A stretch of DNA of 11,882 nt from Myxococcota bacterium (lineage in GTDB: Bacteria; Myxococcota_A; UBA796; GCA-2862545): assembly GCA_039208735.1 (NCBI GenBank), contig JBCCQY010000224.1, forward strand, positions 1 through 11,882. Reading direction: 5' to 3'. The translations under genes and the position numbers were made by a program. Below, piece after piece: positions 1-11,882 of this stretch. The first letter of the stretch is position 1. Every line of letters starts with the position of its first letter. A model generated the notes under the pieces. It was not told the DNA's origin. It saw only the letters and a list, made by a program, of their open reading frames with translations, and ran no database searches.

Positions 1-1
1 G

Positions 2-154
2 ATGTCGAAGGGCGTCGCCTCCCACGAGCACCCCACCTTCGCGAAGCAGGTCGACATACTCTTGGTAGGGCGCCATGTACGCGGGCTGCCGCTCGGCATC
101 GACGCGTTGGGCGAAGTCCTCTTCGGTCTCGTAGATCAAGATGGCGTACTGCAC
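2..154 (-). CDS. YciI/DGPF-family protein, 5' part (runs off the window edge)
   Basis: Manual translation from GTG at 154: MQYAILIYETEEDFAQRVDAERQPAYMAPYQEYVDLLREGGVLVGGDALRH. This matches the YciI/DGPF N-terminus (MxYxLLIY...L..aGvlvgg.aL). Strong SD AAGGAGG at 167-161. Overlaps the GST stop codon. The DGPF motif itself would lie outside the window. Confidence 0.85.
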   Translation of the reverse strand, partial: MQYAILIYETEEDFAQRVDAERQPAYMAPYQEYVDLLREGGVLVGGDALRH

Positions 155-887
155 GAGCTTCCTCCTTCGTCGAGGGCCGTCTCGACCCGTTCTTGGTGTG
201 CGAGGAGCCCCGTGCGACGCCGGAACGCGGTCACCAACGGATCGTCGAACGTACTTCCAGCGACCTGCGCGAACAGCGCATGGCAGGAGAGGTCAGCCGC
301 CGACAGCGATTCGCCGCCAAAGAACGGTCCCTCACCAAGGGCCTGCTCGAGGGTATCGAGGTCTTCCTCAACGAGGGTGAGGATTTCGGACTCGGGCCGT
401 CGACCCATCCCCTGGCTCCATAGGTTTCCACGAACCTCCCGACGCACCATCGCGAAAACGAGCCCTCGGAGCGGCCAAGGAATGGCCCCGAAGAGTCCAT
501 CGCGCACGTCCTGGGGATGGTACGTCCACCGAAAATAGACCTGCGCCCAATAGAGGTGCTCCTCGAGAAGACGCCGCACCAGGGTCGTCTGCGCGTTTCG
601 CACGAGGACCAGCCCCGCGTGCTGCTCCAGGTGACGCTGAATGTTGACCGTGTCGCTCAACACGGCTCCGTCGGGACAGGTCACGAAGGGGATCTTCTTG
701 CGTGGCCCCGACGTCGGATTGGCGGGCTCCAGGCGATAGAGCACCTCCGCCAGCCGCAGCAAGTGCTCGGCCTTGAGCGAAAACGGGCTGGCCTGGGAGA
801 TGCCGAAGGCGGGGGGGGCGCGTGAAGCACGTACCCCCGAGGGGAAGACGGCGCTTTGGCCAGAACAGGGTCCTGATGGACAGTCAA
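136..887 (-). CDS. Glutathione S-transferase family protein, metaxin/FAX-like; apparent 1-nt frameshift in the C8 run at 811-818
   Basis: Motifs PPAFGISQASPFSLKAE, GPRKKIPFV, LSDT.NI, RRLLEEHLYW...YFRW, QGMGR and LGEGPFFGGESLSAADLS. The natural N-terminus (TTG at 887, SD GGAGG at 897-893, MTVHQDPVLAKAPSSPRGYVLHAP) is in another frame and joins the body if one base is added at 811-818. The ORF track start at 936 is doubtful. Confidence 0.85.
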
Positions 888-927
888 GGGAACCTCCGAG
901 AGGGCATAAGGGGTGGCCCTCGTGAAG

Positions 928-956
928 TCGTCGCATGACCGAGGCCCTGTTCTACA
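928..956 (-). promoter_or_regulatory. Putative ECF sigma (ECF42-like) promoter for GST-YciI
   Basis: Minus strand reads TGTAGAA-cagggcctcggtcatg-CGACGA, ending about 40 nt before the TTG start. One of three copies with identical 16-nt spacing. Confidence 0.7.
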
Positions 957-1057
957 CCGCCGCCAAGTTTTCCGGTCGAGAGGTGGAAGCATGACGTTCC
1001 GCCTCGAGAACGCCAGCCGCCGTCGACGGTCAACCCGAGGGCGATGCGGCCGAAACC

Positions 1058-2617
1058 CTACTCCACCGCGAGGACCGCCTCGATGGCCTCGGCGATCCCA
1101 AGCAGCTCGCGGTCGGCCCCCGCCGGACCCGCGATCTCGATTCCGAAGGGCAGACCATCGGCCGTCAGTCCCGCCGGCAGCGTGATGGCAGGCAGATCTG
1201 CGCTGCTGGCGACCGAGGCGTTGCGCACGTAGAGAAAGTCGGTCACCACCTCTCCATCCAGTTCGATGGGCGTCCCCAGCATGCCTTCGGGGGGCGAGGC
1301 GTCCGCTACGCGTCGCGCGGGCAGGGGCGTGGTGGGGTAGAGCATGGCGTCGAGTTCGTTGACCGCGAAGTAGCCATCCAAGAGGTCCTGGAGGGCCACG
1401 CGGGCCCCCGATGCCGCCGCGTACGACGCCTCGTCGCCGGCCGCCGGCGATAGCATCAGCTCGAAGAAGCCCCGCGTCCCCGGCGACTGGATCTGCTCGA
1501 CGAGCCCCGGAAGGCTCGGCGCGGAGGGACGCTGCTCGAGGTAGGCCGCGAGCTCCTGCTGCCCTTCGTAGAGGGCCATGCCGAAGAACACCGCCTCGTC
1601 GAGGTCGCTGACCATCTCGGGAACGTCGGCGACCACCAGCTGTGCGCCCGCCTCGGCAAGGGCGTCGAGGGCGCGCTGCACGCCGCGATCGACTTCACCA
1701 TGCAGACCCGCGTAGAACACGGGTCCGGGCAACCCGATGCGCACTTCACGCAGATCGACCGTCGGCGGTGGGACGTCGTCACCGGTCAACACGGCATCGA
1801 CGATCGCGACGTCGCGGACGGTGTGGGCGAGCGGGCCCACCGTGTCGCGCGACGAGGCCAGCGGAATCACGCCGTCCGTTGCGTAGCGGCCGAGCGAGGG
1901 CCGAAAGCCCACCACGCCGGTGAGCGCAGCGGGGATTCGGATCGAACCCGCGGTGTCCGAGCCGAGCGACATCCCGAACGCGCCGCTGGCCACCGCGACC
2001 GCGCTTCCCGAGCTGCTGCCTCCGGGAAACAGCTCGGGATTCGCCGGATGCAGGGTCGGTCCGAAAGCGCTGTCGAGTCCGGTGGCACCAGACGCGAGTT
2101 CGTGGAGGTTCGCCTTGCCCATGACGACAGCACCCGCCTCTCGTAGCGCTCGGACGACCGGAGCGTCGGCGGGTGCAATGTTGTCGGCGAGCCCCGGGGT
2201 CCCGCCGGTAGTGGGGGTGCCCGCAACGTCGATGTTGTCTTTGACGACGACGGGAACACCGAGGAGAGGCGTAGTTTCGCCCGCGGCGCGCGCGGCGTCG
2301 GCCTGTCGCGCCGCCTCGAGGCTCTCGGCCGCCCACACCACGGGAACGGCATTGAGCTCGGGCCTCGCGTCGAGGACCCGCATGGCCTCACAGACGAGCT
2401 GGACGGAGGTTGCGCCGCCGGTGGTCAACGCGGCGAGCTGCGCCTCCACCGTGGCCTCGACACCCGAAGGCTCAAGGTCATCGCAGTCAGCCGGGGGTTG
2501 GGTGGCCGACGGCGTCTCGGTGGCGTCGTCGCGGTCGGTGGCGGGTGGGGCGGGCAGCGTCTCGGCACAGGCGAAGGCGGAAAGGGCGAGGACGGACAGC
2601 CAGGACTTCTGGAACAT
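1058..2617 (-). CDS. Amidase signature family hydrolase (IaaH/mandelamidase-like), predicted lipoprotein
   Basis: Catalytic Lys in GVPVVVKDNI, GKANLHEL, PGGSSSGSAVAV and LGSDTAGSIRIPAALTGVVGFRPS (Lys-cisSer-Ser triad); C-terminal LPAITLPAG...GLPFGIEIAGP. N-terminal MFQKSWLSVLALSAFA-C lipobox followed by a Pro/Thr/Asp linker. SD GGAG at 2627-2624. Confidence 0.95.
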   Translation of the reverse strand: MFQKSWLSVLALSAFACAETLPAPPATDRDDATETPSATQPPADCDDLEPSGVEATVEAQLAALTTGGATSVQLVCEAMRVLDARPELNAVPVVWAAESLEAARQADAARAAGETTPLLGVPVVVKDNIDVAGTPTTGGTPGLADNIAPADAPVVRALREAGAVVMGKANLHELASGATGLDSAFGPTLHPANPELFPGGSSSGSAVAVASGAFGMSLGSDTAGSIRIPAALTGVVGFRPSLGRYATDGVIPLASSRDTVGPLAHTVRDVAIVDAVLTGDDVPPPTVDLREVRIGLPGPVFYAGLHGEVDRGVQRALDALAEAGAQLVVADVPEMVSDLDEAVFFGMALYEGQQELAAYLEQRPSAPSLPGLVEQIQSPGTRGFFELMLSPAAGDEASYAAASGARVALQDLLDGYFAVNELDAMLYPTTPLPARRVADASPPEGMLGTPIELDGEVVTDFLYVRNASVASSADLPAITLPAGLTADGLPFGIEIAGPAGADRELLGIAEAIEAVLAVE

Positions 2618-2659
2618 CGTGAACTCCGAGGAAGGTCGACCGAGGGGTCGGTCACCCTG

Positions 2660-2688
2660 GCGTCGCTCGACTCGGTGCCGGTTCTACA
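2660..2688 (-). promoter_or_regulatory. Putative ECF sigma (ECF42-like) promoter for the amidase
   Basis: Minus strand reads TGTAGAA-ccggcaccgagtcgag-CGACGC, ending about 42 nt before ATG 2617. Confidence 0.7.
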
Positions 2689-2773
2689 AAAGGTCTTGAG
2701 AATCCGAAAACCATAAGATGAAACATCAAATCTAGGGAATCCGAGCGAGGTGTTCGAAGAAAAACGCCCGGCC

Positions 2774-2802
2774 GGTAGAAACGGGTGGGGCTCGAACGAC
2801 GA
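2774..2802 (+). promoter_or_regulatory. Putative ECF sigma (ECF42-like) promoter for DUF2461
   Basis: GGTAGAA-acgggtggggctcgaa-CGACGA, ending 38 nt before ATG 2841. Confidence 0.7.
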
Positions 2803-2840
2803 AAGCATGACGACTCAATCGAGGTCGTCCTGGAGAACCC

Positions 2841-3560
2841 ATGACCCTCCCCGCCCCACGTCCCTGTGCGGATGCCGCTTCGTCCCGGTTTGCTGGCTTT
2901 TCGATGGCCGGCCTGGAGGCCCTCGCGGCGCTCGCGCGTGACAACACGAAGGCAACCTTCGATCTCCACCGGGAAGGCATCGACGAAGGGCTGATCGAAC
3001 CGGCCAAGCGATTCGTGACGGCCCTGGCCACGCGCCTCGGCACTGCGGTGTCTCCAGGCATCGAAGCACGGCCCCGGGTCGACGGCTCCATCTTCCGACT
3101 TCGACGGGACACCCGCTTCTCGAAGGACAAGTCGCCGTACAAGACCCGCCTGACGATGTTCGTCTGGGAGGGGGAGCATCGCAAGCGCTCACCGGGCTTC
3201 TACCTGAGCCTGTCCCCGAACCGCGTTCAGCTCGGTGTGGGTCGCATGGTCATCGACGACCTCGAGCGGTACCGCAAGGCCGTCGACGAACCGCGCTCGG
3301 GCGAGGCCCTTGTCGCTGCGATCACCAAGGCACAGAGGGCTCTTCCAGGGCTCACGCTGTCGGAGCCAGCGCTCAAGCGGGTGCCCCGCGGATTCGACCC
3401 GCTCCATCCCCGTGCCCGTTGGCTTCGGTGCAAGGTGCTCCACGCCATGCTGGACGTGCCCATGCCCGGTGCCGTGGACGGTCCCGAGTTCCTGGATTGG
3501 ACCGTGGACCGGTTCCTGCCCTTTCGTGACCTCCATCGTTGGTTCGTGGCCAACACCTGA
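2841..3560 (+). CDS. DUF2461 (TIGR02453-like) protein
   Basis: FAGFS...LAALARDNTKATFDLHR and the signature IFRLRRDTRFSKDKSPYKT, plus PGFYLSL and LKRVPRGFDPLHPRARWLR. SD GGAG at 2832-2835. Confidence 0.92.
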   Translation: MTLPAPRPCADAASSRFAGFSMAGLEALAALARDNTKATFDLHREGIDEGLIEPAKRFVTALATRLGTAVSPGIEARPRVDGSIFRLRRDTRFSKDKSPYKTRLTMFVWEGEHRKRSPGFYLSLSPNRVQLGVGRMVIDDLERYRKAVDEPRSGEALVAAITKAQRALPGLTLSEPALKRVPRGFDPLHPRARWLRCKVLHAMLDVPMPGAVDGPEFLDWTVDRFLPFRDLHRWFVANT

Positions 3561-3605
3561 TCGACTGACGGACAGCCATCCTCAATCCTGTTTCTGGAGA
3601 ATTCC

Positions 3606-3752
3606 GTGCCCCTCGTTTCCATCGTCTACCATTCGGGCTTCGGCCACACCCACAAGGTCGCGGAGCGTCTCGCCGACGGCGTTGCTCGGGTTCCTGGCGC
3701 TTCGTCAAGCCTACTTAGGATTACCGCCGACCAGATCACCGGGGGCCGGTGG
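3606..3752 (+). pseudogene. Truncated flavodoxin/WrbA-like NAD(P)H-dependent oxidoreductase, N-terminal about 49 aa only
   Basis: GTG start after GGAG. MPLVSIVYHSGFGHTHKVAERLADGV contains the FMN phosphate-binding loop (YHSGxGHT). Similarity is lost after ITGGRW and the expected DAIIFGSPTY motif is absent. The frame continues to a stop at 3929. Confidence 0.8.
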
Positions 3753-3943
3753 CGGGTCAGCAGCGCATGCTCTGGGTCGGACCCGGCGAGAATCCCTCGC
3801 CACTCACCGGCGATGGCCGTGACGTGGACCGGTAGCTCGGAAGGCACCTGGGCGAGGGTGCCGCGCGCACGCTCCAGCGCGTTGGCACCGCGATCAAGCC
3901 GATGCTCGACACGAAAGCTGCCGACTTGAAGGCGGGGGCGCAT
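3753..3943 (-). pseudogene. Possible convergent gene remnant
   Basis: From ATG 3943: MRPRLQVGSFRVEHRLDRGANALERARGTLAQVPSELPVHVTAIAGEWRGILAGSDPEHALL, with GC-rich third positions. The start loosely resembles Ser/Thr kinase subdomain I. No stop before the flavodoxin fragment. Confidence 0.3.
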
Positions 3944-4054
3944 GGGGGCTCTACGGGTTGCGACAAGCGAGCGCCAACGGTTCGACAAGCCTACCGAAAC
4001 ACCCGCACCGTCTGACCGCGCCATAACCGTGAAATCCCTCAGCCACGGTGTTTC

Positions 4055-6751
4055 ATGCGTACCACACTGCTGACGTTCCTCACGCTGTTGATGGCCTGCG
4101 ACCTTCCATCCCCAAGTTCAACCTCGGATCCAGAGTCCCCCACCCCTGTCGATGCAGCCGAGGATTTGCTGGTTTCCCTGCGCGAGGAAGCGGGGAACCG
4201 GTTCGCCGTGACCTTCCAAGAGGGACGGGTCGTCGGCCTTCAGCTCGTTCACCCCGTGACGCCCACAGTCGAGGGATTCGAGGCTGCGCTGGCCGAACTC
4301 GACGCCGTGATTGGACTGTCTGCAATAAGCGACCTTGAACCCATCGTGTTGCGGGAGGAGCGACGGGAGGACACCGCCACGACGCACGTCGTCTTCGGCT
4401 TGTCGCGCGCAGGGGTGGTTGTCGCCGACGCATCGCTCGGGATGCATGCCATCGCCACGGACCTCGCAGCGCTCGACATCCACCTCCCCGAATTGTCCAC
4501 CCTCGCGGACCCTGATGAGCGCTCCCTCGATCCTCGGCAGGCCGAATCCTTTGCCGAAGTACACGCCGCAACGACCTACCAAACCGTCGAACGCGTGGGA
4601 GAGACGCTCCTCCGCATTCGAGGACCGCATGTCGTATGGCAGGTGACGCTCTCGGTGGGCGGCGAGACGGCAGGCGGAACGCTCACCGTCGATGTCGACG
4701 CCAACACGGGAGACGTCGTCCACGAGCACCTTGAAGAAAATCCCGAGGTCGACTTCGACGTCTACGATGCGCAAGGACTGCCTGCGAGCCAGTGTTGGGA
4801 AGACCGCTGGTTTTTCTTCCCGGTTTGCGACCAGGACGGCTGCGACACCGGAGCAGCGACCGAGTCGTGGAGTGCCCGATTCCATACCGACGAGTTCAAT
4901 ACCTTCCTAAGGAACGTGCTTTCGCGTGACGGAATCGATGGCCGAGGCGGTGACCAAGTTGCCCACATCAACGTGACGCTGCCCAAGAAGAGTGGACCTG
5001 ACAACGCCTACTACTCGCCGAGCTGCGACCACATCGCGTTTTCGCCAGGCATGGCAGAACAAGAGGTGGTGGCCCATGAGTGGGGACACGGCATCCTGCG
5101 CAAGGAAGGCATCGGGTACGACGGTCGGAACGTGTCCTCGCATCGCGACGCCATCCACGAGCACATGGGCGACATGTATGGCTTCTACTACGAGCGCTGG
5201 CAGGACCAAACGGACCTCGACTTCGTGCTCGGAAGCACGCCGATCACCAACGTTCGCAACATCGACAATGGACCCACGGTCGATCATGTCTCCCAGATGG
5301 GCACCAACGACCATGCCAACGGCGAGCTGCTGACCTATGCGATGCTGCTACTCACCCGAGGAGGCACCCATTCCCGCACCCAAGTGCCCGTTCGTGCGGT
5401 GGACCCAGACGCCGTGCTGCAGATCCTCCATCGCTCCGCGGCCGACTGCTTGCCTGGCAATCCTACATTCGCCGACTACCGGAGGGGACTCCTCACAGAG
5501 GCCATCGCGGCTGGCTGGAGCGCCGAGGATCAGTGTCAGCTCGGCAACGCGCTTGGGGCCGTGGGCATCGGCGACGTCGATACGGACTGTGACGGGGTTT
5601 CCAACGCCCAGGAAACCGATGACGATGGCGATGGGGTAGGCGACGCAATCGACAATTGCCCGTTCGTGGCCAACCTCTCGCAACGGGACACTGACCTGGA
5701 CATGGCGGGAGACGCCTGCGACGATGATCTCGACAACGACGGTGTCGATAACGCGCTCGACATTTGCCCTGCGAAGGCCAATGCGGCACAGATCGACTCC
5801 GACGGTGATGGGCAAGGGGATGCCTGTGACGACTCCGACGCAGACGGTCACGAGGACGGCGTGGACAATTGCCCCCAAACCTTCAACGCGACCCAGGGGG
5901 ACCTCGATCGGGACGGCCAAGGGGATGCTTGTGACGACGACAGGGATGGAGACGGCGTAGACGACCTCTCAGACAATTGTGTCACTCGTGCCAATCCCTC
6001 CCAGGCCGACCTCAACGACGACGGCGAAGGGGACGTGTGTGACGACACCGACGATGACGGTCGCTTCGATGCGTCCGACCGCTGTCCCTTTCACGTCGAC
6101 GGCAGGGTTCCAGACCGGGACCGCGACGGTCGTTGGGACAGCTGCGAAGACGACGACGACGACGACGACACGGTACTTGACGAGGAAGACAACTGCCGAT
6201 TCGCCCCGAATCCAGGCCAGGGTGACTTCGATGAAGATGGCCTTGGCGATGCTTGTGATGCGTGCCCCGAAGACCGCAACGCCGGTCGGGATCTCGACGG
6301 AGACGGCCTGGACGATGCTTGCGATCCCTACTTCGACTTTCGCAGGGCCGACCTCAATGCAGACGTTCGCTGCTTGATGTGGGGCTGCGACGGCCAACCC
6401 GACCTGCGGGAACTCGAGATTGCGATTTGGACCGGGCAACACCTCCACGAACTCCCGGAAATCCCGTTGCCGACCTGCGTGGCGGACTGTCCCGAGCGCT
6501 ACGACGAGGATTGGACGGTGACCGTCGACGCAAGCTCGGACTATCCCTATGGCCTCGCGGTGGTCGATCAGCGCGGGAGCATCGTGGCGCGAACCGAAGG
6601 CACCGAAGGGCCGAGTTCGATCACCTTCCGCCCCGCCACGAGCACGCCACAAGGCACGCACACCTACCGCCTGGTGGTGCGACCCTACGACCTGGGCGAC
6701 GCGTTTGCGGCACCGATGGACCTCGAGGTGCGAGCGGGACGTCCCGAGTAG
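4055..6751 (+). CDS. Lipoprotein M4 (thermolysin-like) zinc metallopeptidase with thrombospondin type-3 repeats
   Basis: Lipobox MRTTLLTFLTLLMA-C; FTP-like (THVVFGLSRAGVVV) and PepSY-like (VWQV...VDANTGDVV) propeptide; RDGIDGRG, DNAYY, VVAHEWGHG (HEXXH at 5075-5089), AIHEHMGD (third zinc ligand E) and DHANG; then Asp/Cys-rich repeats and a C-terminal domain of about 140 aa. Confidence 0.92.
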   Translation: MRTTLLTFLTLLMACDLPSPSSTSDPESPTPVDAAEDLLVSLREEAGNRFAVTFQEGRVVGLQLVHPVTPTVEGFEAALAELDAVIGLSAISDLEPIVLREERREDTATTHVVFGLSRAGVVVADASLGMHAIATDLAALDIHLPELSTLADPDERSLDPRQAESFAEVHAATTYQTVERVGETLLRIRGPHVVWQVTLSVGGETAGGTLTVDVDANTGDVVHEHLEENPEVDFDVYDAQGLPASQCWEDRWFFFPVCDQDGCDTGAATESWSARFHTDEFNTFLRNVLSRDGIDGRGGDQVAHINVTLPKKSGPDNAYYSPSCDHIAFSPGMAEQEVVAHEWGHGILRKEGIGYDGRNVSSHRDAIHEHMGDMYGFYYERWQDQTDLDFVLGSTPITNVRNIDNGPTVDHVSQMGTNDHANGELLTYAMLLLTRGGTHSRTQVPVRAVDPDAVLQILHRSAADCLPGNPTFADYRRGLLTEAIAAGWSAEDQCQLGNALGAVGIGDVDTDCDGVSNAQETDDDGDGVGDAIDNCPFVANLSQRDTDLDMAGDACDDDLDNDGVDNALDICPAKANAAQIDSDGDGQGDACDDSDADGHEDGVDNCPQTFNATQGDLDRDGQGDACDDDRDGDGVDDLSDNCVTRANPSQADLNDDGEGDVCDDTDDDGRFDASDRCPFHVDGRVPDRDRDGRWDSCEDDDDDDDTVLDEEDNCRFAPNPGQGDFDEDGLGDACDACPEDRNAGRDLDGDGLDDACDPYFDFRRADLNADVRCLMWGCDGQPDLRELEIAIWTGQHLHELPEIPLPTCVADCPERYDEDWTVTVDASSDYPYGLAVVDQRGSIVARTEGTEGPSSITFRPATSTPQGTHTYRLVVRPYDLGDAFAAPMDLEVRAGRPE
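5570..6330 (+). repeat. About seven thrombospondin type-3 (Ca-binding) repeat units within the peptidase
   Basis: Recurring DxDxDGxxDxxDNCPxxxNxxQxDxDxDGxGDACD, for example DNCPFVANLSQRDTDLDMAGDACD and DNCPQTFNATQGDLDRDGQGDACD. Confidence 0.93.
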
Positions 6752-7483: not shown

Positions 7484-7879
7484 ATGGTGGTGCTTTGGTT
7501 CGTGGGATGTGCAGCATTCAGTGTGGTGGGGAACTGGGAACTGACGCCAACGACTTGGCCGGTCCTGCTTCCGAAAGTCTTGGAGGCGCAAGTCCAGGTC
7601 GAGGAAGGCACCCTGTTCGTCGAACGCGGCGGCGAGGCCTTTGCGACCATCGAATTCTCCGCCCCCGATGCTACAGCGGGCTTGGAGGGACGGGCTGGTG
7701 CTTCGGTGATCGACTTGACCGGCATCTACGACGACGGCACGCTCGTACAAAATGATGCGGCGCTCGGAGGCAGCTGCCAGCTCAACGTCGACGAGTTCAC
7801 ATGCGTTGGCTCGATGACCGTTGATGGTGCAGAGCCCGAGATCTACGACGTCTCGACCGTGTGGGTCAGGGTCGACTGA
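7484..7879 (+). CDS. Hypothetical 131-aa beta-rich protein, possible lipocalin-like lipoprotein
   Basis: SD AAGGAGG before ATG 7484. Very short hydrophobic leader MVVLWFVG-C, then VVGNWEL (GxW), alternating beta-strand patterns, a Cys pair and a terminal WVRVD. Confidence 0.7.
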   Translation: MVVLWFVGCAAFSVVGNWELTPTTWPVLLPKVLEAQVQVEEGTLFVERGGEAFATIEFSAPDATAGLEGRAGASVIDLTGIYDDGTLVQNDAALGGSCQLNVDEFTCVGSMTVDGAEPEIYDVSTVWVRVD

Positions 7880-7920
7880 CCTTTGGCAGGAGTGCGTGCT
7901 ACCTGGCTTCTGGGGGCACG

Positions 7921-10518
7921 TTGGGCGAGTCCCAAGGACGGCCGAACATCCTGCGATTACGGGGTTGCACGGTAGAACTCGCGACGGGAGCGGTGCGAGG
8001 AGATCGCCCCGGTCAGCTCACCGAGCGAGAGCGCACCCTGCTCGCCTGCCTCGCCCACCAGCCAGGCCAGGTGATGTCTCAGCACGCCATCGCGCAACGG
8101 GTCTTTGGGTACGCCGAAACGACCGAGACGCGAGCCGTCGACAAAGCGATGAGCACGCTCCGCGCCAAGGTCGAAATCGACCGTCGCACGCCCGAGCACC
8201 TGCTGACGCGCCGCGGGCAGGGCTACGTCTTCGTGCCGCTGAAGACCGTTGAGCCTGCGCCCTTCGAACCCGAGTCGACCCGCAACGTTGTACGCCGGGT
8301 CCCCGCAATGCGGGATCCCTTCGTAGGGCGAGGGTCGGAGCGGGCTCGGCTCATCGAAACGGTGACCCACCATCGGCTCGTCTCACTGATCGGTCCAGGC
8401 GGAGTTGGCAAGACACGGCTCGCCGTGCAAACGGCCCTGGATCACCCAGGTCCCTGGCCCGGAGGCGTGCAGTTCTGCGACTTGACCGAGGCTCGATCCG
8501 AGGCCGAGGTCTTCCGGGTGCTTGCGCGTTCGTTGCAGCTGGTGCTCGATGAAGATCCTGCCGGGCTGATCGCCTTCGCGCTCGCGAGCCGCGAGCGTCA
8601 GCTGCTGGTGCTCGACAATGTCGAACAGATCGCCGATGTGATGCGGCCTCTGGTGGTGCGATGGACGGAAGCCGCCGCGCAGTTGCATCTGCTCCTGACC
8701 TCCCGGGAAGACCTCGATCTGCCAGCGGAGAGACGGGTCGTGCTCGATCCGATGGAGGAGGGGGACGCCAAGGCGCTCTACCTGCAGGCCGCAACCGCGG
8801 TAGGGGCCCCGACCGATCTTTCGGAGCAGGACCTTGCCGTGTTGCCCGAACTCATGGAGCGCCTCGACCGCTTGCCCCTCGCGATTGAACTCGCGGCCGC
8901 CCGCGTTCGATTGCTCCCTCCGGCACGGCTGCTCCCCCGTCTCGGGAACCGCTTCGACGTGCTCACGCGACGGCGGACCGCCCATCGTCACGACAGCCTC
9001 GGCGCGACGCTCCAGTGGAGTTGGGCCCTGCTTCGCCCCACTGCGCAAGTGGCACTCGCGCAACTGTCCGTTTTCGATGGAGGATTCTCACTCGAGGCCG
9101 CCGAGGCCGTACTCGACCACCCTGCTGCACTCGACCTGCTGCAGGAGCTGGTTGATCGCAGCTGGGTCCAACAGGTGGGAGCGGATCGCTATGGCCTGCT
9201 CGTGAGCGTCCAGGCGTACGTCAAGGAGCACGAAATCGACCTCGGATCGGCCGAGGAACGGCATGGTAACTACTTCGCACGGCTGGGTCGGGGTCTCATC
9301 GAAGGGGCTCCTCCCACGTCCCTCAAGCGCAAGATCCTCGTCGATATCGACAACGTCCTCACTGCGCTGCGCCGAGCGATCGCTCGTCGGGACCTTGGCG
9401 TCGCGTTCGAGACGCTAGTGGCCGCCTGGGTGAGCTTCACCAGGACCGGACCCTATGCCGCGTGGGAGACCTTGGCCGATGAGGTGTGCCGCACCTTCGA
9501 GCTTGGGCCGACGCAACACGCAGAGGTGACGGCCCGATGGTCCTACACGCTTCGCAGCACCGGACGGATCGAAGCGTCCCAGGCCATCATCGCGCCGGCC
9601 ATGGAGGCGGTGCGTCGCGGAACGTTGGTCGGCCTCACCGCCGTCCGCGTCCGCATGCAACACGGTCGGCTCTTGCACTGGGCCGGACAGCTGGACGAGG
9701 GTGCCCGGGAGTTCGACCTTTGCCTCGAGGAAGTCCGCCGCCTCGGCCTCCGATCCCTCGAAGCGGTGGTCCTTCGCGGCATCGGCCTGCTGAACGCGGA
9801 GCGCTCTCGCTTCGACGCGGCACGACCCGCCTACGAAGAGGCCTTGTCCATCGCACTCGACCTCGAAGACCAGGGATCCGAAGCCTGGGCTCGGTGCAAG
9901 CTCGGGATCCTGGCCTACCACCAACGCCGCTTCGAAGCTGCGCTCGCAGAGCTGAATGCGGCACTTCGGCTCGCCAAGGCGCTTGGGCATCGGGAACTCG
10001 AAGCCGAAGCCCTCCGCCATCTCGGCGGGCTGCACGAAGATATCGGGCCGCCCGAACGCACCATCGCCTATCGCGAGCGAGCGCTTGCCCTTGCGCTCTC
10101 CATCGGGAACCGCTCGATGTCCTCGAGCATCCGGGTCTCCCTCGCCCGCGCATTCACCGGGACGGGGGACCTGGCCCAAGCCCGCGCTCACATCGAGCCC
10201 GTGCTGGCCTCATTGCATCGGCTGCATTCCGCAGGGATCGCCGCGCGCGCGCACCTCGTGGCGGGCGACCTCGCCACGGCGCTACGCGATTTCGACGACG
10301 CCGATCGCCACTACCGGTTCGCGGTCGACACCTGCCGTGACGCAGGCTTTCGGATCCTCGAAGGGACGGCGCTCACCTCCTGGGCACGATCGCAGATCGC
10401 GGATGGCCAGTGGGACGGCGTCCAGATCACCATCACCGCTGCGGAGGCGCTCGTGGACAGTGTCGACGATCCAGAGTTGGCCAGGGTTGTCCGTGAGCTT
10501 CGGTCCATGATCGCATGA
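7921..10518 (+). CDS. OmpR-type winged-HTH / STAND (NB-ARC-like) ATPase / TPR transcriptional regulator
   Basis: wHTH: LTERERTLLACLA..PGQVMSQ...VFGY...RAVDKAMSTLRAKVE.D...PEHLLTRRGQGY. FVGR; Walker A GPGGVGKT (8392-8415); Walker B LLVLDNVEQ; sensor LLTSRE; LDRLPLAIELAAAR; LQWSWALL; LSVFDGGF; C-terminal 40-aa-type TPR repeats. Start uncertain (TTG 7921 preferred; the frame is open from 7861). Confidence 0.92.
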   Translation: MGESQGRPNILRLRGCTVELATGAVRGDRPGQLTERERTLLACLAHQPGQVMSQHAIAQRVFGYAETTETRAVDKAMSTLRAKVEIDRRTPEHLLTRRGQGYVFVPLKTVEPAPFEPESTRNVVRRVPAMRDPFVGRGSERARLIETVTHHRLVSLIGPGGVGKTRLAVQTALDHPGPWPGGVQFCDLTEARSEAEVFRVLARSLQLVLDEDPAGLIAFALASRERQLLVLDNVEQIADVMRPLVVRWTEAAAQLHLLLTSREDLDLPAERRVVLDPMEEGDAKALYLQAATAVGAPTDLSEQDLAVLPELMERLDRLPLAIELAAARVRLLPPARLLPRLGNRFDVLTRRRTAHRHDSLGATLQWSWALLRPTAQVALAQLSVFDGGFSLEAAEAVLDHPAALDLLQELVDRSWVQQVGADRYGLLVSVQAYVKEHEIDLGSAEERHGNYFARLGRGLIEGAPPTSLKRKILVDIDNVLTALRRAIARRDLGVAFETLVAAWVSFTRTGPYAAWETLADEVCRTFELGPTQHAEVTARWSYTLRSTGRIEASQAIIAPAMEAVRRGTLVGLTAVRVRMQHGRLLHWAGQLDEGAREFDLCLEEVRRLGLRSLEAVVLRGIGLLNAERSRFDAARPAYEEALSIALDLEDQGSEAWARCKLGILAYHQRRFEAALAELNAALRLAKALGHRELEAEALRHLGGLHEDIGPPERTIAYRERALALALSIGNRSMSSSIRVSLARAFTGTGDLAQARAHIEPVLASLHRLHSAGIAARAHLVAGDLATALRDFDDADRHYRFAVDTCRDAGFRILEGTALTSWARSQIADGQWDGVQITITAAEALVDSVDDPELARVVRELRSMIA

Positions 10519-10555
10519 CCGAACGTGCCGAATTCAAAGTGCGGTTCACGCCGCC

Positions 10556-10800
10556 GCCAGGAACGATCTCGGCGCGCCACGCTGAGTGGGGCGCGAGCAC
10601 ATCGCCACAGACGATCCGATGGGAGCGCTTCGGTGGGATCAGGGCGGCGAGGCGCGCGATGAGCGCCACGCCCGAGAACACCATCGTATGGGTGCCGTCG
10701 GACCAGGGGCGCTTCAGGCGGACCTCGACCGCCCCGTCGTCGCGCAATCGGAGCCGATCGTAGGACAACGGGGGCCGCCCGACGTAGCGGCAGAGGCGCA
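10556..10800 (-). mobile_element. IS91/ISCR-family rolling-circle transposase remnant (C-terminal fragment)
   Basis: RLCRYVGRPPLSYDRLRLRDDGAVEVRLKRPWSDGTHTMVFSGVALIARLAALIPPKRSHRIVCGDVLAPHSAWRAEIVP matches the IS91/ISCR transposase C-terminus. The YHGV motif has decayed to CGDV, and no HUH or Zn-binding N-terminal part is present. Confidence 0.9.
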
Positions 10801-11005
10801 GGTGCATCCGAACAGCTGCGCGACGAAGTCGCGTGCGAGTCGGGCAGCGCACCGGGATGCCGTGGGGGCCCGCGCAGCATTCGAGGGCGGCGCCCCGCTC
10901 GACGGCCCCCCCCCATTTGTGGCGTGACCCAAGGGGCGTCCGCGCCCTGCCGGACTGCGTAGCCGATCGGTTCGCATCGAGCACGGGCCCGGGTGACGGG
11001 TATCG

Positions 11006-11021
11006 ACAATGAACTCATTGT
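11006..11021. promoter_or_regulatory. Palindromic operator for toxin-antitoxin autorepression
   Basis: Perfect inverted repeat ACAATGA-AC-TCATTGT immediately upstream of the SD (GGAG 11022-11025) of an RHH antitoxin. Confidence 0.7.
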
Positions 11022-11031
11022 GGAGTCGTTG

Positions 11032-11259
11032 GTGGCACAGCTCACGGTCCGCGGGCTCGATGAGGGCCTGGTCAAGCAACTCAAGATTCGGGCAGCGCAC
11101 AATGGACGTTCGGCCGAGGCCGAGCACCGGATGATCCTGGAGACGGTGCTCGGAGCGCCGCCAGCAGACGAGTTGCGTGCGGTTCTCGAAGACATGCCCG
11201 AGGTGGACGACGACGTATTCCGAGGCGATCGAAGCTCGCGCCCCATCGAGTTTCCCTGA
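11032..11259 (+). CDS. FitA-like ribbon-helix-helix antitoxin (VapB role)
   Basis: GTG start after GGAG. MAQLTVRGLDEGLVKQLKIRAAHNGRSAEAEHRMIL is the FitA/Arc-like RHH pattern; acidic C-terminus; TGATG overlap with the PIN toxin gene. Confidence 0.92.
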   Translation: MAQLTVRGLDEGLVKQLKIRAAHNGRSAEAEHRMILETVLGAPPADELRAVLEDMPEVDDDVFRGDRSSRPIEFP

Positions 11260-11717
11260 TGCTTCTGCTCGATACGAACATCTTCGGGGAGATTCGGAAG
11301 GTCGCGCGGAATCACCCGAAGGCTAACTCCAGTGTCGCTGCGTGGTATCGCACGCTCGATCTGGACACCGTCCACACGAGCGTCGTCGTGATCGGGGAGA
11401 TGCACAACGGCGTCGAGCTGACCAGCCATCGAGGAGATCCGCGAGCGGCGGAGGCGCTGAGGCAATGGGTGCATCGACTCGAGGTGACGCTGGGCCCACG
11501 GATATTGCCGATCGATGTGGATGTCGCGAGGCAGTGGGCTCGACTCGGCGTGCCCAACCCGGTCGCCACGGCCGATGGTCTCATTGCCGCTACCGCTCTC
11601 GTCCACGGTATGGAAGTCGTCACCAGCAACATCGTAGATTTTTCCCCCGGCACTGGTGTTGCGATTCTCCAGGACATGCAAGAATGTCGCGCTGTGAGGC
11701 AAGGACCCACCCGCTGA
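11259..11717 (+). CDS. vapC: Type II TA system PIN-domain ribonuclease toxin
   Basis: LLDTNI, SVVVIGEM..GV, RILPID..VA..W, DGLIAATALVHGMEVVTSNIVDF; the conserved acidic residues are intact. Confidence 0.95.
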   Translation: MLLLDTNIFGEIRKVARNHPKANSSVAAWYRTLDLDTVHTSVVVIGEMHNGVELTSHRGDPRAAEALRQWVHRLEVTLGPRILPIDVDVARQWARLGVPNPVATADGLIAATALVHGMEVVTSNIVDFSPGTGVAILQDMQECRAVRQGPTR

Positions 11718-11762
11718 CCTAGCCGATTCGCAGTTTCCTTTTGTTTTGGTCGTTGGTGCCCC

Positions 11763-11882
11763 TCAGAGTTCGACGACCCAAGGGATGCGGAAGAACCAGC
11801 CGACCTCTGGTGAGCGCCCGTCTGCGCGAACCATCTCGTCTGGCAGGACGAGAACCGGTCCATCGTCATCGAAGACGGTGAA
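11763..11882 (-). CDS. 3' end of a hypothetical protein entering from the window edge
   Basis: Open frame FTVFDDDGPVLVLPDEMVRADGRSPEVGWFFRIPWVVEL ending at TGA (11765-11763), with protein-like composition and host-like codons. Confidence 0.55.
   Translation of the reverse strand, partial: FTVFDDDGPVLVLPDEMVRADGRSPEVGWFFRIPWVVEL

Follow-up and report, generated by a model that had tools for sequence, protein, structure and literature searches.

ECF42 is one of the largest groups of ECF sigma factors, and its signal and targets are still largely unknown. The published group description (Casas-Pastor 2021, PMC7826278) gives TGTCGAT and CGTC as promoter elements, a YCII gene at position -1, and a C-terminal extension of ~200 aa. 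RpoE10 of S. meliloti has a small regulon that includes remote operons and glyoxalase-like genes, with transcription starts mapped 8 to 9 nt after CGTC (PMC6180224), and ECF-10 of P. putida has been linked to antibiotic and oxidative stress (as related in PMC7826278 and PMC8999054). For promoter recognition, Table S1 of Todor 2020 (PMC7776599) pairs promoter position -33 with Gly168 and Ser172, -32 with Arg171 and Phe175, and both -31 and -30 with Arg171.

We analyzed an 11,882-nt stretch of DNA, hereafter the window, that constitutes the entire contig C224 of a 9.4-Mb, 288-contig Myxococcota assembly with 6% contamination. Three predicted promoters lie near its left end. Promoter 1 (928..956, minus strand, TGTAGAA-N16-CGACGA) heads an operon of GST, yciI, and a broken ECF42 gene. 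Promoter 2 (2660..2688, minus strand, TGTAGAA-N16-CGACGC) precedes an amidase gene and stands back to back with promoter 3 (2774..2802, plus strand, GGTAGAA-N16-CGACGA), which precedes a DUF2461 gene. An earlier note on this DNA, made from the letters alone, had given these motifs and coordinates exactly, and its statements that the sites are intergenic, that each faces a gene, and that all spacers differ were borne out. The interval between the site and the start codon, which it put at ~38 to 42 nt, is 40 nt for TTG 887, 42 nt for ATG 2617, and 38 nt for ATG 2841. Relative to the canonical ECF42 promoter, the -35 TGTCGAT is replaced by (T/G)GTAGAA, and the -10 element CG(T/A)C is present at the 16-nt spacer as CGAC in all three sites. 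Transcription would begin ~8 nt after CGAC, and the previously proposed starts near 922, 2654, and 2808 agree with this and with the 8 to 9 nt of the RpoE10 promoters (PMC6180224). We think that the three sites are probably promoters of a variant ECF42 sigma factor reading (T/G)GTAGAA-N16-CGAC, that an intact paralog encoded on contig C156 is the reader, and that the window holds a decaying regulon island.

No promoter-like sites were returned by a sigma-70 scan of window positions 1-4100, and Rfam gave no matches. The rest of the window encodes a peptidase M4 with TSP3 repeats (4055-6751), a winged-helix/NTPase/TPR regulator (7861-10518), and a FitA-like antitoxin with a PIN toxin (10993-11717); the GTAGAA motif is absent before these genes.

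Shuffling the window 200 times with dinucleotide content preserved gave a mean of 0.03 matches to the pattern, and three matches were reached in 0/200 shuffles. Since the pattern had been picked after looking at the window, it was tested outside it, genome-wide, using our own hexamer gene calls and scoring as promoter-like any match lying between genes, in sense orientation, and with a start 5-200 nt downstream. Twelve of the 22 genome matches to GTAGAA-N16-CGWC were promoter-like, compared with 9/306 at spacers of 12-15 and 17-21 (Fisher p 5e-11), which bears out the proposal that the motif would be enriched before genes. With the three window sites and a paralogous site on contig C141 removed, 8/18 were promoter-like (p 3e-7). 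The raw count was not raised (22 matches versus 31 for a backwards control), so the signal is positional; raw motif counts across 154 genomes were uninformative. A position weight matrix (PWM) was then trained on 13 sites from nine loci whose sigma factor carries the recognition-helix Trp described below, all from other genomes and metagenomes. At a 16-nt spacer, four genome positions scored 19 or more, namely, one on contig C196, which is the best site of the genome, one on contig C41, and the amidase (20.8) and DUF2461 (19.8) sites of the window. All four were promoter-like, versus 0/33 at other spacers. Promoter 1 scored 18.1 and ranked seventh in the genome at this spacer.

The predicted regulon is not confined to this locality: copies of the motif also precede the intact ECF42 operon of C156, a glyoxalase-family gene on C196, and, on C141, a paralog of the amidase gene. 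Five distal sites (86-131 nt from the start) precede genes unlike the usual ECF42 targets, e.g., those for a trypsin-like protease and a DUF5122 propeller; these five and two doubtful sites on contigs C20 and C172 are less certain members of the regulon.

The genes behind the three sites differ in condition. The metaxin-like GST gene (136..887, minus strand), identified by Pfam GST_N_4 and by alignment with intact homologs in genomes G003 and G148, is frameshifted. It has a ribosome-binding site (GGAGG, 897-893) and start codon TTG 887, followed by ~23 codons in one frame that match the first residues of the homologs; the body of the gene lies in another frame after a G run near 811-821, out of frame with TTG 887. 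Judged from the sequence, the gene is likely a pseudogene. ATG 936 was considered as the start and rejected: it is in frame, but it falls within the promoter spacer, upstream of the predicted transcription start, and would add sequence that the homologs lack. G003 and G148 both keep the order GST-yciI-sigma gene, and both have the motif, at the head of a GST-yciI-sigma operon in the former and of an SDR-GST-yciI-sigma operon in the latter. At three other loci of the Trp type, a second site precedes a classical GST gene. Outside the operon, none of 28 homologs of the window GST gene had a site.

The amidase gene (1058..2617, minus strand) has an open frame for a 519-aa protein of the amidase-signature family (PF01425, E 2e-97). 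Its best NCBIfam model, indoleacetamide hydrolase, scores below that model's cut-off, and its N terminus looks like a lipoprotein signal. The paralog on C141 is 85% identical and has kept the site though the spacer changed. None of three amidase homologs in other genomes has a site, which leaves the two copies of this genome as the only instances of the amidase link.

Downstream of the DUF2461 gene lies a flavodoxin/WrbA-like relic (3606..3952, plus strand), which retains ~50 N-terminal codons before a change of frame and a TAG at 3833-3835. A tblastn search with an intact flavodoxin showed that ~70 central residues of the homologs are gone; Pfam gave no match to the relic, and its WrbA matches were weak. 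Sequencing error was rejected as the origin of the GST and flavodoxin lesions, as the same letters occur in a second assembly from a public run, possibly of the same sample, which covers window positions 1-866 with no differences and no gaps; a contig from the run also covers 3346-4082 with no differences. The earlier note had proposed a four-gene detoxification or stress module. GST and DUF2461 stand as plausible ECF42 targets, and the working module does not, with the GST gene frameshifted and the flavodoxin gene internally deleted and carrying a stop. A detoxification role is suggested only by the target families (glyoxalase-like, GST, amidase, and flavodoxin).

At the left edge, the window ends within the 5' part of yciI (1..154, minus strand; YCII/DGPF family), which likely continues on contig C266. 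The end of C266 and the start of the window at base 1 share 19 identical nt, C266 carries the rest of yciI (PF03795), and the two halves match the yciI of G003 at 76% and 87%. The join between C266 and C224 is inferred from this overlap and from the match to G003. A 4047-nt contig from the public run also extends past the left edge. An ECF42 gene does follow yciI, as had been predicted, but in place of the predicted long C-terminal extension there is a stub ~55 codons long, in which codon 45 is TAG and homology ends ~10 codons further on. This copy is without sigma4 and without the extension, and no DUF6596 match was found on C266. The adjacent sigma factor, which had been proposed to drive the regulon, is therefore ruled out as a stub, and reading of the sites would fall to an intact copy encoded elsewhere in the genome. 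Beyond the stub lies a broken gene fragment, 65-76% like a protein of contig C64. Two repeats were also observed. The right end of the window (11720-11882) is nearly repeated within C266 (~2960-3140, with matching translations) and may bound a mobile island, and a Y2 (IS91-type) transposase fragment lies at window positions 10433-10984, with an 89-nt piece, 97% identical, near the C141 amidase paralog (~6400-6500).

In the window island, amidase, DUF2461, and yciI thus have open frames, sigma, GST, and flavodoxin are broken, and transposase fragments flank the region. These breaks and flanks would also fit orphaned relics, i.e., sites once read by the local ECF42 and now silent or drifting, with the C156 copy mainly serving its own operon. 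ECF42 factors are often local regulators (PMC7776599), and the stub and yciI match the G003 operon better (76-87%) than yciI matches its C156 counterpart (63-79%). We nevertheless consider this unlikely: the core of all three sites is perfect, the amidase site persisted on C141 while its spacer diverged, the best PWM site of the genome lies on yet another contig, and the G003 sigma, the closest relative of the stub, shares the KTMGQRLW helix of the C156 sigma, which should therefore read the same code.

The candidate for the preferred reading, an intact sigma factor acting on these sites from elsewhere, comes from a search for paralogs. Consistent with the expectation that the genome would encode an ECF42-type sigma, it encodes four DUF6596 sigmas whose frames are open, and a yciI precedes each of them. 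DUF6596 is taken here to be the ECF42 extension domain. The paralog on C156 is the only one with GTAGAA, in the site A-GTAGAA-N16-CGTC located 28 nt before yciI; this site is intergenic once the start of the divergent Hen1 gene is placed, sitting in a gap of 71 nt. It scores below 16 with the PWM, less than the window sites, all of which have CGAC. The paralog on C39 has the canonical TGTCGAT-N16-CGTC. That on C12 has TGTCCAT-N16-CGTC (8168-8194), conserved in genome G002, at the head of an operon of a zinc-dehydrogenase-family gene, yciI, and sigma, and both the C12 and G002 sigmas have Lys at the Ser172-equivalent position. No promoter was assigned to the C1 paralog; its G002 relative has a GGTAGAC-N17-CGAC candidate.

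The C156 sigma (P0001) has 403 aa. PF04542 matches above its cut-off (E 1e-7) and PF08281 weakly, under its cut-off (E 0.04); against the PDB, SigE chains aligned with residues 9-161 (E 0.013), and together these matches cover sigma2 and sigma4. Some 240 aa follow sigma4, with DUF6596 at E 2.5e-21, more than the ~200 aa expected of the extension, in which no TPR family was found at E 0.1 or better. A YCII-domain gene stands at -1 (PF03795, E 4e-18). In our own tree, the protein is nested among DUF6596 sigmas of the TGTCGA type (99 SH-aLRT clade). Two small genes lie downstream of the sigma gene. In this region of C156 (5014-8960), a Hen1 gene (Pfam Hen1_L) is transcribed divergently from the intact Trp-type yciI-ECF42 operon, and the gene after Hen1 presumably encodes a Pnkp-like protein. 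That C156 and C224 come from one cell is an assumption, given the 288 contigs and the 6% contamination.

Recognition-helix residues were compared with the spelling of the -35 element across ECF42 loci collected from relatives, the best 80 of 578 genome hits, and a metagenome scan, a sample biased to C156-like proteins. In the metagenome pattern scan, 8/80 loci with flanks were ECF42; further loci lacked flanks and so yielded no upstream DNA. The set comprised 142 distinct ECF42 loci, with a head site in 96; 21 Trp loci had no upstream DNA. Proteins were aligned to RpoE by way of SigE, with RpoE positions counted from what we take to be its helix motif. The base at -33 of the head site, A or C, follows the Phe175-equivalent residue: A versus C was 10/0 for Trp, 2/70 for Val, 4/3 for Phe, and 1/4 for Ser, and two further head-site loci with an unread helix both had A. 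All 10 Trp loci with a readable head site have GTAGAA (spacers: eight N16, one N15, and one N17), and 70/72 Val-type loci have the canonical GTCGA. Together with the positional enrichment, this supports the earlier suggestion of a TGTAGA-variant, ECF42-type promoter class. Covariation with the C/A base was strongest at columns W154 and K147, and with the seventh base at column G150; these columns align to RpoE positions 175, 168, and 171, respectively.

When all sites in 85 loci were counted (133 at N16, versus a background of 6-15 per other spacer), C versus A was 75/2 for sigmas with Val and without Lys at the Gly168 position, 14/10 for Lys with Val, 3/12 for Lys with Phe, and 1/11 for Lys with Trp. 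Lys at this position thus occurs with either base. A reading in which Trp175 alone explains the switch was weakened, for Val and Phe sigmas with Lys168 also have TGTAGAA sites, so that Trp is not required, and the Todor table places residue 175 at -32. A quick tree of 121 rows required the Trp label to change twice and is compatible with one origin of the Trp group, and the covariation accordingly falls short of showing cause. We infer that A at -33 is permitted when the RpoE-Gly168 position holds Lys and favored when the Phe175 position is aromatic (Trp here), and that Gly at the position of Arg171 accompanies A at -30.

A different sigma, either the C1 ECF42 paralog, whose promoter was not assigned, or a non-ECF42 ECF, might read the sites alone or together with the C156 sigma. 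The genome has 65 sigma4_2 matches, with ~60 further sigma4-type domains as possible readers, and the five distal sites stand before genes unlike the usual targets. We hold this to be quite improbable: promoter 1 stands before a yciI-ECF42 operon, the motif is found at the head of Trp-type operons in 10/10 loci, and no other sigma gene lay within 4.5 kb of 13 inspected sites, as judged from N-terminal sequence only in our own gene calls. Chance matches or a repressor box in place of promoters can practically be dismissed, since, for all that the raw genome count does not exceed the backwards control and the pattern was chosen after the fact, the enrichment is specific to spacer 16, sense strand, and intergenic position, and the motif is asymmetric with the geometry of mapped ECF42 promoters.

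The gene behind promoter 3 is the best-supported new target, as judged from the sequence comparisons that follow. It has an open frame (2841..3560, plus strand) for a 239-aa DUF2461/TIGR02453 protein, assigned by profile matches. Among 59 DUF2461 loci, 10 had an ECF42-type site within 1.5 kb upstream, with at most 2 at other spacers and none on the opposite strand. Such a site was found in 9/27 genomes having ECF42 and in 1/29 without it (p 0.005, with related genomes not independent). In genome G129, DUF2461 lies inside a glyoxalase-like-DUF2461-yciI-ECF42 operon, and the second DUF2461 gene of the present genome (C178) has a canonical TGTCGAT-N16-CGTC 22 nt upstream. AlphaFold2 predicted the protein with pLDDT 94, and the predicted fold is YktB/DUF1054-like (Foldseek match 2a8e, E 8e-6; VIA-align Z 14.4 and 12.4). 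Only YktB/DUF1054, without known function in those entries, came above Z 8 in the fold search, so no function follows for DUF2461. The statistical link between DUF2461 and ECF42 appears to be the first of its kind: the literature searched, which did not extend to the key papers and Todor Datasets S1/S2, held no description of it, and one paper ties DUF2461 to ECF288.

Two other genes were observed behind canonical ECF42 sites. A ~106-aa protein without Pfam match (C101:4978-5298; L275, L278, and L292; likeness judged by eye) recurs directly behind such sites, in two genomes with DUF2461 as the next gene downstream. On C3 (122080-122790), a DUF899 gene behind TGTCGAA-N16-CGTC is a candidate target of canonical ECF42.

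Under the preferred reading, the intact C156 sigma of the Trp/Lys type would act in trans, opening TGTAGAA-N16-CGAC promoters. It would be regulated through its C-terminal extension, perhaps with YciI, as proposed for the group (PMC8999054), and on an unspecified signal would transcribe its own yciI-sigma operon, the glyoxalase-family gene, the two amidase paralogs, and DUF2461, the window being a decaying copy of a target island. A parallel canonical regulon under the C39 sigma would include a glyoxalase gene of its own and probably also the second DUF2461. Tentatively, and with rather less confidence, we suggest a wider possibility, in which single-base changes in the -35 element (TGTCGAT, TGTAGAA, and TGTCCAT) separate at least three ECF42 circuits of this genome, two of these circuits each have a DUF2461 and a glyoxalase paralog, a natural series of residues at two positions of the recognition helix (non-K/V, K/V, K/F, and K/W) shifts the -33 preference stepwise from C to A, and DUF2461 is a core ECF42 effector that points to the signal of the group.

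The locus offers a predicted promoter variant, and the hypothesis that two residues account for it can be tested by a small reporter matrix; the variants are candidate orthogonal switches for synthetic circuits. As the window is a half-dead copy, the intact operons of C156, G003, and G148 are better objects of study.

Compared with the ECF42 group as described (PMC7826278), the system shares the sigma2-sigma4-DUF6596 architecture, the yciI gene directly upstream, the 16-nt spacer, and the TGT..GA and CG(A/T)C core. It differs in having A at -33 and -30 (TGTAGAA), in a -10 element that is CGAC at 9/10 Trp loci, and in targets that include DUF2461, amidase, and GST; the only amidase that the group description names as a neighbor is acetylmuramoyl-L-alanine amidase, which belongs to another family than that of the window. 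The -35 variant TGTAGAA was not described for ECF42 in the literature searched; Todor Datasets S1/S2, outside that search, may contain such promoters. RpoE10 of S. meliloti is similar in its small, partly remote regulon with glyoxalase-like genes and differs in its -35 TGTCGG and in being the single ECF42 described, and the account in PMC6180224, as far as available to us, does not mention DUF2461. S. venezuelae, with Sven_0747, Sven_4377, and Sven_7131, has several ECF42 paralogs in one genome, as here (via PMC7826278 and PMC8999054), but in Streptomyces these paralogs have the canonical promoter in common and YCII genes as targets, whereas three paralogs here have three different predicted -35 spellings. 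With respect to the code of Todor 2020 (PMC7776599), a natural K168/W175 series within ECF42 was not found in its text, as far as available to us, or in Table S1. Residue 175, tabulated there for -32, tracks -33 in our data, whereas the tabulated covariation of 168 with -33 and of 171 with -30 is seen here too.
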